Shown piece after piece: positions 60-32,398 of a stretch of 64,000 nt of DNA. Every line of letters begins with the position of its first letter. Positions within the stretch are counted from its first letter, which is position 1. A program made the translations under genes and the position numbers. Source of the stretch: a virus. The notes under the pieces were generated by a model. That model was not told the origin of the DNA. It was given only the letters and a program-made list of their open reading frames with translations, and did not search any database. The stretch is from positions 32,001 through 96,000 of IMG/VR virus record IMGVR_UViG_3300044701_003269. One strand, given 5' to 3'.

Positions 60-302
60 TTAGGTGCTCTTATTGCTACTGCTGGTTCCGCAGGTATCAC
101 AATCTATAGATTTATCAAGGCTGGACTTTGATTTTTTATTGGCAGCATCAACTCCAAAGGTTGCTAGAGCAGAAGTAAATACGGATGCTATAAAAGTAGC
201 ATCCATTTTTTTTAAGTAGTCCATATAGTTCAAAGTTAGTAAAGTTGCAGACCATCCAAGAATTGCCAATCTAATTACTGTAAATGAACTTATGTTTTTC
301 AT
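60..302 (-). CDS. hypothetical membrane protein
   Basis: 80 aa ORF with two hydrophobic stretches; ATGA overlap with upstream ORF 299..454. Confidence 0.7.
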   Translation of the reverse strand: MKNISSFTVIRLAILGWSATLLTLNYMDYLKKMDATFIASVFTSALATFGVDAANKKSKSSLDKSIDCDTCGTSSSNKST

Positions 303-454
303 TTTAACTTTCTACCTCTTTTAGCAGGTCTACGAATAAAACGAATTATTTCTGGCGGTTGTTTTTTGGGAATAGGTCTCCTGTTCTCAAGCATTATTCC
401 ATCATTTGTTAGTAAACGAATTAGAACTAAGAGTGATAAAACTTTTCTTTTCAT
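299..454 (-). CDS. small basic hypothetical protein (51 aa, MKRKVLSLLV...)
   Basis: Translated by hand; fills the gap between neighbours; stop overlaps next ATG. Confidence 0.55.
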   Translation of the reverse strand: MKRKVLSLLVLIRLLTNDGIMLENRRPIPKKQPPEIIRFIRRPAKRGRKLK

Positions 455-455
455 T

Positions 456-794
456 TTACGTGTAAGGTTTTACTATACCTTCTGTTAACATTCTTTCATT
501 TACGGTGAATGAATCACCTACAAGATAAAGAGTTCCCAGGATTCTTCCATACTTGTCTTCTTTATGGGTTTCAATAACCCACTCATTAGAACGTGAGAGT
601 TCTTTTTCTAACCAAAGTCTTGCTTTAATACCTTCTGCTTTTTCTGATAAGTTCGTTGTTCTTGTTTCTGCAGCATCAATACCTTTGAGACGAACTCTCT
701 GTTTTATTGTAATATCAAAACCCAAATCAATATCAATGTCAATAGTGTCTCCATCAATGACTCTGTGAATTTTCTTTATCTTGTATTGATACAT
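456..794 (-). CDS. staphylococcal-nuclease (SNase/thermonuclease)-like protein
   Basis: Motifs VIDGDTI, RVRLKGIDAAE, DKYGRILG, VNERML. Confidence 0.85.
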   Translation of the reverse strand: MYQYKIKKIHRVIDGDTIDIDIDLGFDITIKQRVRLKGIDAAETRTTNLSEKAEGIKARLWLEKELSRSNEWVIETHKEDKYGRILGTLYLVGDSFTVNERMLTEGIVKPYT

Positions 795-900
795 CTTTCA
801 TCTCCAGATGTGCTAATCTTAATATGTAATAAATTGTCCAGGCCGTGAATGTTAATCCACATCCAAGTATAACTACTACACCCCAAGGGAAGTCATTCAT
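754..900 (-). CDS. small membrane protein (48 aa, MNDFPWGVVVILGCG...)
   Basis: Translated by hand; one TM-like segment; ATGA overlap with 897..1091. Confidence 0.5.
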   Translation of the reverse strand: MNDFPWGVVVILGCGLTFTAWTIYYILRLAHLEMKDVSIQDKENSQSH

Positions 901-1091
901 AATTTTCCTTCTTTTTTATGTATCCAGGTTTTGAGTTCGTGTAGATATTGTCTCAAGTTATCTGCTTTTTCTAGATGCCAAACATCACCACTCTTGAAAT
1001 ATTCTTGAGTGTGATTGTCGATTGCTTTTAAAATATTATGTATCGGTGCGTTCCAAGGTTCCCTTTTGGGAGTATTCCATTCCCTTGGCAT
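897..1091 (-). CDS. hypothetical phage protein
   Basis: 64 aa ORF downstream of TAAATA late-type motifs on the minus strand (~1113-1140). Confidence 0.7.
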   Translation of the reverse strand: MPREWNTPKREPWNAPIHNILKAIDNHTQEYFKSGDVWHLEKADNLRQYLHELKTWIHKKEGKL

Positions 1092-1166
1092 TGGTGGGAA
1101 AGCAGTTTTAATTATTTAGAATAAAGGGTGTTTATTTATACCGCGCCACCTTAGAGGGTGGGCTCA

Positions 1167-1200
1167 TTGACAGGGTTTCAAAACAGTGTTATGATAAATA
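1167..1200 (+). promoter_or_regulatory. psbA promoter: sigma70-type plus overlapping late-promoter motif
   Basis: TTGACA(1167-1172)-17 bp-TATGAT(1190-1195), overlapping ATAAATA(1194-1200). Confidence 0.8.
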
Positions 1201-1242
1201 CATCAACAGGTTAAGGAATGTAACAGTTCCTTAATCTTTGTA

Positions 1243-1350
1243 ACTCCCACTAACCGAGACCTATGGGGAGTATAAACACGTCTCTCATATCCTAGACTTA
1301 GGGTGTCTAGGAAATAAGTATCTCCACCATTTCCCTGATGGATCTACTTA
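1243..1350 (+). ncRNA. structured psbA 5' leader, likely PhotoRC-II-type cis-regulatory RNA
   Basis: GAGAC/GTCTC pairing; hairpins CCTAGAC-ttagggt-GTCTAGG and CCAT-ttccctg-ATGG with complementary loops (AGGG/CCCT); directly upstream of phage psbA. Confidence 0.65.
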
Positions 1351-1361
1351 CTTTTTAAAAA

Positions 1362-2441
1362 ATGACTGCTACAATTTCACAACAACGACAATTAAATACT
1401 TGGGAACAGTTCTGCAACTGGGTTACTTCAACCGATAATCGTCTTTATGTCGGTTGGTTTGGAGTCCTGATGATTCCCTGCCTGCTTGCTGCAACAACTT
1501 GCTTCATCATCGCATTCATCGGTGCTCCCCCTGTGGACATTGATGGTATCCGCGAACCTGTTGCTGGTTCCTTAATGTACGGAAACAACATCATCTCCGG
1601 TGCTGTTGTTCCTTCGTCCAATGCAATTGGACTGCACTTCTACCCCATCTGGGAAGCTGCTTCCCTAGATGAGTGGCTCTACAACGGTGGTCCTTTCCAA
1701 CTCGTTGTATTCCACTTCCTCATTGGCATCTATGCCTATATGGGTCGTGAGTGGGAACTTTCATACCGCCTAGGTATGCGTCCTTGGATCTGTGTTGCTT
1801 ACAGCGCCCCTGTTGCTGCTGCATCCGCAGTATTCCTGGTCTATCCTTTCGGTCAAGGTTCTTTCTCTGATGCTATGCCTCTTGGTATCTCTGGCACCTT
1901 TAACTATATGCTTGTGTTCCAGGCAGAACATAACATCCTGATGCACCCCTTCCACATGCTTGGAGTTGCTGGTGTCTTCGGTGGTTCTCTGTTCAGTGCT
2001 ATGCACGGTTCTCTGGTTACTTCCTCACTAGTTCGTGAAACCACTGAGAATGAGTCACAGAACTATGGTTACAAGTTCGGTCAAGAAGAAGAGACCTACA
2101 ACATCGTTGCTGCTCACGGTTATTTCGGACGCCTTATTTTCCAATATGCTTCCTTTAATAACTCACGTTCACTTCACTTCTTCCTTGCTGCTTGGCCTGT
2201 AGTTGGCATCTGGTTCACGGCGCTTGGTGTTAGCACCATGGCATTTAACCTGAATGGATTCAACTTCAACCAGTCTATCCTTGACAGTCAGGGTCGTGTG
2301 CTCAACACCTGGGCAGATGTTCTGAACCGTGCTGGTCTTGGAATGGAAGTGATGCATGAGCGTAACGCTCACAACTTCCCTCTCGATCTCGCTGCTGCTG
2401 AGAACACTCCTGTTGCTCTCACTGCACCTGCAATCGGTTGA
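1362..2441 (+). CDS. psbA: photosystem II reaction centre protein D1
   Basis: Full-length D1 ([31 protein letters not shown]); uninterrupted. Confidence 0.99.
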
Positions 2442-2462
2442 GTTAGTTAAAACTTAATCACT

Positions 2463-2488
2463 GGGGGTCTTCGGACCCCTTTCTTTTT
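2463..2488 (+). terminator. Rho-independent terminator after psbA
   Basis: GGGGTC-TTCG-GACCCC followed by T-tract. Confidence 0.85.
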
Positions 2489-2500
2489 CGGAGGTTATAA

Positions 2501-3562
2501 ATGGTATCTTCTGCTTTACAACAACCAATTCAACAAAGGGGGTGGTTCGATGTTCTCGATGATTGGCTTAAGCGTGATAGGTTTGTTTTTGTCGGTTGGT
2601 CTGGCCTTCTCCTTTTCCCTACAGCTTATCTCGCTCTTGGCGGTTGGCTTACAGGAACCACCTTTGCTACCAGTTGGTACACCCACGGCATTGCGTCTTC
2701 ATATTTGGAGGGGTGTAACTTTCTTACTGCTGCTGTCAGCACTCCTGCTGATGCTCTCGGACATAGCCTCTTACTCCTATGGGGTCCTGAAGCTCAGGGA
2801 GATTTCGTCCGCTGGGTCCAACTTGGGGGACTCTGGACTTTTGTGGCACTACACGGCGCTTTCAGCTTAATCGGATTTATGCTTCGGCAGTTCGAGATTG
2901 CTCGACTGGTTGGCATCCGACCATATAATGCAATCGCATTCTCTGGTCCTATCGCTGTATTTGTCAGCGTGTTTCTGATGTACCCTCTGGGTCAATCATC
3001 TTGGTTCTTCGCTCCCTCTTTTGGTGTGGCAGCAATCTTCAGGTTCCTGCTGTTCCTTCAAGGGTTCCACAACTGGACACTCAACCCCTTCCATATGATG
3101 GGAGTGGCAGGTATCCTAGGTGGTGCTCTGCTCTGTGCTATTCACGGTGCTACTGTGGAGAATACTCTCTATGAAGATAGCGACCAAGCAAACACTTTCA
3201 AAGCTTTTGAACCCACGCAAGAGGAGGAAACTTATTCGATGGTTACTGCTAACCGTTTCTGGTCACAGATTTTCGGTATTGCTTTTAGTAACAAGCGTTG
3301 GTTGCATTTCTTTATGCTCTTTGTTCCCGTCATGGGTTTATGGACCTCTAGTATCGGTATCATTGGACTCGCTCTTAATCTTCGTGCTTACGACTTTGTA
3401 TCTCAAGAAGTTCGTGCGGCGGAGGATCCGGAGTTCGAGACGTTCTACACAAAGAACATTCTATTAAATGAAGGCCTTCGTGCTTGGATGGCTCCAGTAG
3501 ACCAGCCTCATGAGAATTTTGTGTTCCCAGAGGAAGTTCTACCGCGAGGTAATGCACTTTAA
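2501..3562 (+). CDS. psbD: photosystem II reaction centre protein D2
   Basis: Full-length D2 ([16 protein letters not shown] ... [10 protein letters not shown]); GGAGG RBS upstream. Confidence 0.99.
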
Positions 3563-8097: not shown

Positions 8098-8297
8098 TGA
8101 CATACGAAGAGTTTTTGGATATGCCAACAACTTTTATGGATGACATGCTTAAAGTGGTTAATATTAAAAACAAATATCGTTTAAAGTTTACAGAAGAAGA
8201 AACAGAAATTAATCACCATCTTTTAACTTATTGGGAAGAAATGAAGTTAAATGAGATGAGACATAGATTTGAAAAGTGTTGGGAGATAGAGGAATGA
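8097..8297 (+). CDS. hypothetical protein
   Basis: TGATG-coupled, 66 aa. Confidence 0.65.
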   Translation: MTYEEFLDMPTTFMDDMLKVVNIKNKYRLKFTEEETEINHHLLTYWEEMKLNEMRHRFEKCWEIEE

Positions 8298-8497
8298 AAT
8301 CCTTTCAAGAATTCTTATCTGAAGAAGAGAAATCTTCAAAAAGAACTGCTGGTTATATTAATGAACCAAAGGGAAATGAGAAGTGCTCTAACTGCAATAT
8401 GTGGAGACCACCGAACGCTTGCACTGCAGTGAGTGGTAAGATCTCACCCGATGGTTGGTGCAAGTGGCATCAATATAATAGAAAGAACCAAGATTAA
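8294..8497 (+). CDS. HiPIP-like [4Fe-4S] protein with capsid-targeting-like N-terminus
   Basis: GY-x3-P-x5-C-x2-C-x8-C-x2-V-x-G-x-I-x-P-x-GWC; N-terminus MKSFQEFLSEE; GAGG RBS before ATG 8294. Confidence 0.75.
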   Translation: MKSFQEFLSEEEKSSKRTAGYINEPKGNEKCSNCNMWRPPNACTAVSGKISPDGWCKWHQYNRKNQD

Positions 8498-8512: not shown

Positions 8513-8526
8513 GTATAACATTTTAC
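8513..8526. promoter_or_regulatory. NtcA-type binding site
   Basis: GTA-taacattt-TAC (GTA-N8-TAC), 8 bp upstream of the -35 box, with an A/T-rich flank. Confidence 0.6.
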
Positions 8527-8563: not shown

Positions 8564-8570
8564 GACCTTA

Positions 8571-8666
8571 CGTTCATCGGAGAAATCCGACGCAAGTAGG
8601 ACGGCGGAACGGTACGTTCATTCGCTATTCGCAAATAGCGAACGCAAACCGCCCGAAGGAACGGGG
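8571..8666 (+). ncRNA. double glutamine-riboswitch-like RNA (glnA / Downstream-peptide class)
   Basis: Two units of CGTTCA-[hairpin]-CGCAA...GGAACG; hairpins TCGGA-GAAA-TCCGA and TTCGCTATT-CGCA-AATAGCGAA; AGTA/GAA E-loop; GGACGG/CCGCCC pairing. Confidence 0.75.
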
Positions 8667-8697
8667 CCTAAAAATCTCATTCTGGAGGAAAATCCTA

Positions 8698-8835
8698 ATG
8701 GCTAAAGTAGTATACCGTGGCATCGAATATGATACCCAGAAGCGTCTGGAGTATCAACAGCAAATGATGCAGCAACCCCAACAGTACAACGAAACCTATC
8801 GTGGTGTTAAGTTCGTAAAGGAGGGACATAAGTGA
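8698..8835 (+). CDS. DUF4278-like small protein (45 aa, two YRG motifs)
   Basis: MAKVVYRGIEYDTQKRLEYQQQMMQQPQQYNETYRGVKFVKEGHK; GGAGG RBS; below the ORF-track cutoff. Confidence 0.8.
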   Translation: MAKVVYRGIEYDTQKRLEYQQQMMQQPQQYNETYRGVKFVKEGHK

Positions 8836-8933
8836 TGCAAAAACTCAACGTACTTCAACTCATTAAAGAGCAAAAGCAAAAAGAGCAACGTCGTCACCAG
8901 GCACTGCTTGCAAACGCAGGAGCAGGAAAGTGA
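8835..8933 (+). CDS. 32-aa basic helical peptide
   Basis: MQKLNVLQLIKEQKQKEQRRHQALLANAGAGK; TGATG-coupled; GGAGG upstream. Confidence 0.65.
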   Translation: MQKLNVLQLIKEQKQKEQRRHQALLANAGAGK

Positions 8934-9016
8934 TTGCTACCATTGCAGCTATTGCAGGTGCATCAACAGCATTCATTTATCTAATTTATTTTGAAGTTCT
9001 ATTGCTAAACAAGTAA
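8930..9016 (+). CDS. 28-aa single-TM peptide
   Basis: GTG start overlapping previous stop (GTGA); MIATIAAIAGASTAFIYLIYFEVLLLNK. Confidence 0.55.
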   Translation: MIATIAAIAGASTAFIYLIYFEVLLLNK

Positions 9017-9174
9017 TGGATAATTACCATTACCACTATGATGATGCGGACAAGGACAGTAGAGGTCCTGCTTGTTATCTTCTAACATATCGAGGATGTC
9101 GCTATTGGTCTTGTTATCGCATTCATCTAGTGCAATGGTTTGAAAAAGTTTTTAAATACGACAGGGAGGATTGA
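9016..9174 (+). CDS. 52-aa protein with LTYRG motif
   Basis: TAATG-coupled; MDNYHYHYDDADKDSRGPACYLLTYRGCRYWSCY... Confidence 0.6.
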   Translation: MDNYHYHYDDADKDSRGPACYLLTYRGCRYWSCYRIHLVQWFEKVFKYDRED

Positions 9175-9199
9175 CACCTCCCTTTTTTTTGTCTATAAT
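9163..9199 (+). terminator. terminator hairpin with embedded consensus sigma70 promoter
   Basis: AGGGAGG-attgaca-CCTCCCT + T-run; TTGACA(9171)-17 bp-TATAAT(9194). Confidence 0.8.
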
Positions 9200-32116: not shown

Positions 32117-32398
32117 GCGAGTATGGTGGAATCGGTAGACACACCAGACTTATGAAAATTGAGCCTCATTTGAGAAATCTTATGAGTGTAATTCCTCAAA
32201 TTCGGTGAAACCTGTAAAATGGCAATACCGAGCCAAGCATCGTAAGATGAAGGTGTAGAGACTAGACGGGGAACACCTAAACCGAAAGGTATGGTGAAGG
32301 TATAGTCCAGACCACAAACCGAAAGGGTAGTGAAAACTATAGTGGTACGAAAATCTGTTGGGCGTATGCCCGTGGGAGTTCAAGTCTCCCTACTCGCA
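32117..32398 (+). tRNA. trnL: tRNA-Leu(UAA), intron-containing (exons 32117-32151 and 32350-32398)
   Basis: Acceptor GCGAGTA/TACTCGC; D-arm; spliced anticodon arm CCAGA-CTT^AAAA-TCTGT; long variable arm GGGC-gtat-GCCC; T-arm GGGAG-TTCAAGT-CTCCC. Confidence 0.92.
32152..32349 (+). mobile_element. group I intron (198 nt, trnL(UAA)-like)
   Basis: Follows U, ends in G; ATTGAGCC IGS; P AAATTCGGTGAA, Q AATACCGAGCC, R GTAGAGACTA, S AAGGTATAGTCC; P7 GACTA/TAGTC. Confidence 0.9.

Follow-up and report, generated by a model that had tools for sequence, protein, structure and literature searches.

A glutamine-I three-way junction that shares its P3 helix with a circularly permuted second junction upstream of a DUF4278-like gene of a T4-like cyanophage

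The window analysed here is a stretch of 64,000 nt, a section of a 174-kb virus record whose genome is 83%-complete. Judged from its genes and nearest matches, it belongs to a T4-like cyanophage; all of its blastn matches (19/19) are Synechococcus phages. Two copies of the pattern CGUUCA-hairpin-CGCAA-loop-GGAACG lie close together in the window and raise the questions of how they fold, what the folded RNA senses and what it controls. A sequence-only reading had offered two drawings, either two tandem units that kiss through their loops or one three-way junction with a permuted second junction nested in its P3 helix. Every element on which that reading was built is present in the sequence. Unit 1 consists of CGUUCA (8571-8576), a hairpin (8577-8590), CGCA-AGUA (8591-8598), GGACGG-C (8599-8605) and GGAACG (8606-8611). 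It is joined by the linker GUA (8612-8614) to unit 2, which consists of CGUUCA (8615-8620), a hairpin (8621-8642), CGCA-AA (8643-8648), CCGCCC (8649-8654), GAA (8655-8657), GGAACG (8658-8663) and G8664. The proposed complementarity of the two loops was likewise found, with five pairs between the units and the single mismatch A8601.C8652. Simulated 64-kb windows contain the single-unit pattern 0.007 times on average, versus two real occurrences, at 8571 and 8615, and the paired units of the window are not due to chance. The Rfam model RF01739 matches positions 8569-8667 with 37.2 bits, above its gathering threshold of 35; its alignment joins the 5' part of unit 1 to the 3' part of unit 2 and skips 52 nt, which it treats as inserted into P3.

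Comparison with homologues indicates that the RNA 8571-8664 is almost certainly one glutamine-I three-way junction that shares its P3 with a second, circularly permuted junction. Its parts are as follows.

8571..8576, plus strand: outer P1 5' strand (C1 = 8571) and A6; partner 8659-8663
8577..8590, plus strand: P2a hairpin of the outer junction; top-ranked covariation
8591..8598, plus strand: outer J2/3; G22 = 8592, linchpin C23 = 8593 with G8664, E-loop strand AGUA 8595-8598
8599..8604, plus strand: 5' strand of the shared P3; partner 8649-8654, one A.C mismatch
8605..8620, plus strand: inner, circularly permuted P1 hairpin and A 8620, supported by covariation; G54' = 8606, 3' strand 8607-8611 (C58' = 8610, G59' = 8611), loop GUA, the first base of which (G60' = 8612) is the inner linchpin, and 5' strand 8615-8619 (C1' = 8615)
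8621..8642, plus strand: P2b hairpin of the inner junction; covariation
8643..8648, plus strand: inner J2/3; G22' = 8644, C23' = 8645 with G8612; AA in place of the E-loop strand
8649..8664, plus strand: P3 3' strand 8649-8654, E-loop GAA 8655-8657, G54 8658, outer P1 3' strand 8659-8663 and linchpin G60 8664; Rfam match and covariation

Homologues were collected by four pattern scans of viral contigs and one scan for the second half, which yielded 345 complete elements, the window included, with 217 unique cores. The nested element is thereby present on at least 345 viral contigs, among the isolates in S-PM2, S-CREM1, S-SM1, S-TIM5 and DSL-LC02. It occurs in a single copy per genome, and no second copy was found in the 83%-complete genome of the window. 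Nearly all homologues have a single AGUA half and, after it, a single GAA half. In the scans, one partner of a pair was fixed; the linchpin partners were free to vary, and in one scan the P1 partner as well. Many of the contact nucleotides were demanded by scans and parser, which accounts in part for their 100% conservation; checks free of this demand brought to light only a few exceptions. A scan with the first strand and the E-loop as its sole anchors found 120 loci, of which 81 were already in the set and 39 were new. The latter included 22 canonical single or tandem aptamers, 14 loci lacking a P2 stem, one ending at the contig edge, one nested element whose inner loop measures 45 nt and one without the inner 3' strand. 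Natural decay forms have lost the inner 3' strand (L594) or the inner 5' strand (L191, L227, L229). Among the matches listed from a loose and mostly noisy pattern scan of genome contigs, no host-encoded nested form was seen except in L508, a contig of 3.8 kb from a genome bin that looks phage-like itself.

The two repeats in the window are identical, so that only variants can decide between the drawings. The four diagnostic pairs of the nested drawing are Watson-Crick in 345, 345, 343 and 332 of the 345 homologues, versus 289, 289, 174 and 173 for those of the tandem drawing. The outer pair 5-55 is C-G in 340 homologues and U-A in 5 (345/345), the inner pair 55'-5' is G-C in 289, C-G in 54 and A-U in 2 (345/345). 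In the outer linchpin, nucleotide 23 of the first half pairs with the base that follows the last strand (C-G 238, G-C 105, broken 2 of 345); in the inner linchpin, nucleotide 23 of the second half pairs with the first base of the linker (G-C 268, C-G 64, broken 13 of 345). When GGAACG of the first half is changed to GCAACG or GAAACG, the 5' strand of the second half changes with it while the first strand stays the same (56 cases), and an altered first strand is accompanied by an altered last strand (5 cases). Among the 217 unique cores, the nested drawing fits better in 40 with respect to P1 and in 87 with respect to the linchpin, the tandem drawing in none.

The same picture emerged from the alignment as a whole. 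Out of 3403 column pairs, the nested pairs rank 7th (the outer linchpin), 8th, 10th and 52nd in covariation, three of them in the top ten alongside pairs of the P2 stems, versus ranks of 159 to 3270 for the tandem pairs. RNAalifold, unaided, recovered both nested P1 helices. On a rough tree of neighbouring genes, the partners change on the same branch in 17/17, 27/27, 24/24 and 2/2 cases, counts that are inflated by recombination and missing data and, as the tree is poorly resolved, do not represent independent events. Each of the three common swaps was seen in 6-12 different P3 sequences. The inner P1 loop has at least 3 nt in all homologues; the scans had permitted 2. The folding energy of the window element is -27.7 kcal/mol when nested versus -20.3 kcal/mol in tandem, where the kissing helix is unscored, and single-sequence folding is uninformative, with a z value of -1.9. 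As the covariation shows, the first strand pairs with the last to form the outer P1, and the two middle strands with each other to form the inner P1 with its 3-nt loop.

Of the two drawings, only the nested one stands. Separate aptamers in tandem that make a loop-loop kiss, or a pseudoknotted hybrid of glutamine-I and -II, are scarcely tenable. The identical repeats of the window can be paired in either way, and the first unit, which is transcribed first and is able to fold alone, may exist as a transient intermediate. The tandem drawing nonetheless requires C.C or G.G mismatches in P1 of 56 homologues and in the linchpin of about 170 and never fits better, and true tandem glnA units, as in SAR86 and other marine genome bins, have a P3 hairpin of their own in each unit. 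Regarding the hybrid of the glnA and Downstream-peptide classes that had been proposed, RF01704 scores 24 bits on the window, below its gathering threshold of 33, and no glutamine-II pseudoknot is present: within the first six tail positions no loop-to-tail pair is among the top covarying pairs, and the loop strand of the window pairs inside P3. The C23-G60 linchpin is not diagnostic of glutamine-II, since it is present in a plain single glutamine-I aptamer (L608) and is replaced by G-C in 105 nested homologues.

Covariation of the helix between the units, GGACGG/CCGCCC, had been named as a check, and the helix does covary, at positions 1, 4, 5 and 8 of P3. Position 1 is A-U in 179, G-C in 28 and G-U in 7 homologues, position 5 is G-C in 185, A-U in 15 and G-U in 10, and position 3 is frequently A.C or C.A. 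L129 and L235 have GGAAGG/CCUUCC, a variant in which every position pairs. The E-loop spans both units as foreseen, with AGUA contributed by the first half and GAA by the second; in the window the putative outer E-loop is at the base of P3 (8595-8598 / 8655-8657), and RAA is conserved in the homologues. The inner junction has no E-loop and instead AA/C (290/345). Only a few homologues (L302, L322, L329, L282, L361) have AGUA/GAA in both junctions. This is likely the ancestral state, and these homologues fit an origin by duplication. In a common long form of P3, the strands are nearly the same sequence and pair with two A.C mismatches, which would be expected if two P3 hairpins had opened and then paired with each other. 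The nested element may accordingly have arisen by tandem duplication of a glutamine-I aptamer, a strand swap via the two P3 loops and loss of the inner E-loop. A phage glutamine-I aptamer in L587 (5075-5210) and L588 has a different long P3 insert with a further AGUA-helix-GAA module.

In both glutamine-I and glutamine-II, glutamine is contacted by C1, G22, C58 and G59 together with a metal ion, on scaffolds that differ (PMC6698751). The contact nucleotides C1, G2, G22, C58 and G59 are present in both junctions of the window, a conservation that is partly imposed by the search. The P1/P2/P3 three-way junction is backed by covariation on the outer as well as the inner side, and the long-range Watson-Crick pairs 23-60, C8593-G8664 and C8645-G8612, both covary. 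A single P3 joins the two junctions head to head, both of which have a 23-60 linchpin of their own, and each junction would form a glutamine pocket of C1, G22, C58, G59 and a metal ion, giving two glutamines per RNA. The outer pocket very probably binds glutamine. By analogy with the crystal structures of glutamine-I and -II, the inner pocket rather likely does so as well. The different ligand that had been considered for the RNA is unlikely, since the contact nucleotides are all kept and canonical single aptamers control the same gene in sister phages.

The inner junction might nevertheless be a ligand-free scaffold, or serve chiefly to control the ORF found in P2b of many relatives, with glutamine bound by the outer pocket only, which we regard as rather unlikely. 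Singlet glycine riboswitches, which carry a "ghost" aptamer, offer a parallel. For such a scaffold speak the AA/C that stands in for the E-loop, a linchpin broken in 13/345 inner versus 2/345 outer junctions, the natural losses of an inner strand, the single aptamers that serve the same gene alone and the Shine-Dalgarno-like inner loop GGAG, which is found only together with a P2b ORF (63/63), though not on independent branches. Yet the inner linchpin swaps compensatorily from G-C to C-G in 64 cases on 8 P3 backgrounds, and in known aptamers the 23-60 pair belongs to the ligand-bound pocket. Moreover, G22' is retained wherever the second half was seen, glutamine-II makes the same pocket without an E-loop, and core conservation is equal in the 123 homologues that are free of ORFs. 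That the inner pocket binds another ligand and the RNA serves as a two-input gate is very improbable: the inner scaffold is of a third kind, with neither E-loop nor pseudoknot, but all contact nucleotides match a glutamine pocket. Also very improbable is an RNA that is no metabolite sensor but binds a protein, or a site of cassette insertion at the DNA level that resembles an aptamer. That many phages have ORFs in both P2 loops, and that the same palindromic hairpin turns up in either P2 position, would suit these proposals; the covariation of the tertiary linchpin, the E-loop, the conserved OFF helix on the ribosome site, the NtcA box, the single copy per genome and the interchange with canonical aptamers all argue against them. 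Our preferred reading is that both pockets bind glutamine.

A permuted junction also exists alone. In 14/20 genomes of one marine gammaproteobacterial family, a permuted glutamine-I aptamer, opened in P2 and with P1 closed by a 4-nt loop, is found upstream of the glutamine synthetase gene or, in the one other gene checked, of a TonB-dependent receptor gene (L461:4930-5072, L627, L646); sometimes it is doubled. Rfam missed both of the stand-alone permuted aptamers tested. They retain the E-loop, so that they do not prove the inner scaffold of the phage element to be functional.

In the window, P2a and P2b are plain hairpins with no ORF in their loops. In the homologues, the P2b loop exceeds 60 nt in 189/345 and the P2a loop in 68, and the long loops that were translated contain a whole small ORF that begins right after the stem. 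Such ORFs were confirmed in S-SM1 (L619), S-TIM5 (L620) and DSL-LC02 (L647) and also found in L012. The loop genes, located in P2a and/or P2b, encode a hydrophobic N-terminus and two cysteines and belong to phrog_504 and its relatives; at least one P2b ORF family is phrog_504, which comprises 311 phage records and whose context was examined in S-SM1, S-TIM5 and DSL-LC02. Many of the P2b frames stop within the P3/E-loop strand. No phrog_504 homologue was found in the 83%-complete genome of the window. Rfam missed the one ORF-bearing contig tested. Many homologues share the sequence of the P2b palindrome (8621-8642 in the window), which turns up at either P2 position (74 in P2b versus 15 in P2a) and suggests exchange between the halves or a protein-binding site; the genome of the window has one copy of it.

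The element is flanked by the following features.

8513..8526, plus strand: candidate NtcA-type box GTA-N8-TAC, centre about 51 nt 5' of C1 (consensus PMC6212724)
8535..8563, plus strand: sigma-70-like promoter TTGACT, 17 nt, TATTAT; consensus scan 10/12
8653..8688, plus strand: expression platform; predicted OFF helix of the end of P3 plus the E-loop strand (8653-8658) with 8680-8685, which extends into the Shine-Dalgarno sequence GGAGG 8684-8688
8698..8835, plus strand: DUF4278-like (IF17-like) ORF of 45 aa with two YRG motifs, the regulated gene; phrog_5049
8832-8933, 8930-9016 and 9016-9174, plus strand: three overlapping micro-ORFs of 33 aa, 28 aa (hydrophobic) and 52 aa (YRG)
9163..9190, plus strand: intrinsic terminator at the end of the unit, in overlap with the -35 box of the promoter that follows

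Transcription is predicted to start at about 8570-8571, the first nucleotide of the aptamer. An NtcA-type box centred at -45 to -56 was found in 161/286 unique homologous upstream regions versus 1.3 in shuffled ones. Around the -10 box there is a 4-bp inverted repeat (8554-8557/8564-8567), whose sequence varies across the homologues; 264/339 homologues have a hairpin of 4 bp or more close to where the upstream region ends, a raw count not set against shuffled sequence. In many homologues TAAATA, which resembles a T4 late promoter, is present about 33 nt 5' of C1. Directly 5' of the element, a 67-aa ORF (8294-8497) weakly matches HiPIP, with an E value of 3e-4 that narrowly misses the cut-off.

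In homologues with a C23-G60 linchpin, all six pairs of the OFF helix (6/6) are formed in 112/138 versus 5.1 expected, and the changes are consistent; at position 3, A opposite C occurs in none of them. The mean change in this class is -2.5 kcal/mol versus -0.2 and -0.04 in two shuffles. Two cruder tests of the ribosome site, one of which omitted the P3/E-loop strand while the other averaged over four bases, gave no or a weakly OFF signal for the class. In the G23-C60 class, C60 begins a helix on the Shine-Dalgarno sequence, and the ligand lowers the cost of opening in 83/83; a helix of this kind, from C60 on the Shine-Dalgarno sequence, is the mechanism proposed for gifB. The window's own OFF helix has 5/6 pairs with a folding signal no better than shuffled sequence, so that the ON direction is here taken over from the family; the platform may have a weak inner stem (8663-8666 with 8675-8678). 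Known type 1 and type 2 switches ahead of DUF4278 genes are ON switches, and this one is probably an ON switch too.

In the absence of ligand, the 3' strand of P3 and the E-loop would pair with the ribosome-binding site, as supported at the level of the family. Glutamine would stabilise P1, the linchpins and P3, the ribosome site would be freed and the DUF4278 micro-operon turned on. The OFF fold excludes P3, so that both pockets oppose it, and because both need the helix that is destroyed in the OFF fold, binding may be cooperative; the Hill slope could perhaps exceed 1. The balance tips towards the full model, a translational ON glutamine riboswitch built as a nested double aptamer with two pockets.

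The 45-aa ORF matches Pfam PF14105 with an E value of 0.0017, below the cut-off, and a YRG/DUF4278-like protein is encoded 3' of the element in 324/345 homologues. In L586 and L614 the same gene (42-44/45 identical residues) is led by a canonical single glutamine-I aptamer. The portion of IF17 that makes contact with glutamine synthetase is absent from the DUF4278 proteins of picocyanobacteria. Neither the 33-aa nor the 52-aa ORF had a family match. S-PM2 likewise has three small ORFs 3' of the element. Phages with this unit would make an IF17-like peptide when the glutamine level of the host is high. Elsewhere in the window, positions 32142-32331 and 1231-1325 hold a group I intron match near tRNA genes and PhotoRC-II RNA, respectively.

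The element resembles glutamine-I riboswitches (RF01739; gifB leader, PMC6212724; structure, PMC6698751) in the three-way junction, the E-loop, the contacts, the 23-60 linchpin, the location before a DUF4278 gene and the predicted ON control of translation. Unlike them, it is phage-borne, its P3 runs into a permuted junction without an E-loop rather than into a hairpin, and the P2 loops of its relatives often contain whole genes. The outer junction has all testable features of glutamine-I; the inner one lacks the E-loop. Tandem glutamine riboswitches (157 doublets and 4 triplets, classed as pseudo-cooperative; PMC9481103) also have two glutamine cores per leader, but they are treated as serial independent units, whereas here each half is incomplete alone and one helix is common to both. 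Independent serial folding is contradicted here by the four covarying pairs across the units and the shared P3. The review (PMC9481103) makes no mention of nesting. With glutamine-II (RF01704; PMC6698751) the element has in common the same pocket, the C-G linchpin, the DUF4278 target and, in the inner junction, the lack of an E-loop, but the pseudoknot and the second helix of glutamine-II are missing. Glutamine-II was crystallised as a strand-swapped dimer; the swap proposed here is intramolecular and evolutionarily fixed.

The c-di-AMP riboswitch contains two pseudo-symmetric junctions. To our knowledge, none of the c-di-AMP, THF, preQ1-I, glycine and guanidine-II riboswitches is a duplicated, strand-swapped copy of an aptamer that also works as a singlet. 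Two ligands are bound by the single aptamers of the c-di-AMP, THF and preQ1-I riboswitches and by the dual aptamers of the glycine and guanidine-II riboswitches (PMC9481103 Table 1). Two identical ligands acting on one expression platform, as in those systems, are also proposed here, where the second ligand is presumed.

Riboswitches have been judged rare in phages, and a census in 2017 listed no more than two glutamine aptamers for the genomes of cyanophages (PMC5473149). The founding glnA alignment includes S-PM2 and ocean sequences of the nested type, with the second half alone aligned, as one aptamer, so that some of the catalogued single or tandem glutamine riboswitches are mis-drawn. In the literature covered, which is incomplete, we came across no account of glutamine aptamers that are nested or permuted. 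Tentatively, the element may be a natural intramolecular domain-swapped riboswitch in which two cooperative pockets gate the ribosome site via the same helix, one whose permuted half has a stand-alone counterpart at work in bacteria and which folds around one or two translated genes in many cyanophages. The 94-nt, ORF-free form of the window is a handy construct for ITC or crystallography. If both pockets bind, duplication and strand swap would have built a two-site sensor from a weakly binding singlet, with natural intermediates in existence, and if the domain-swapped reading is true, the element would be a common phage sensor of the nitrogen status of the host.
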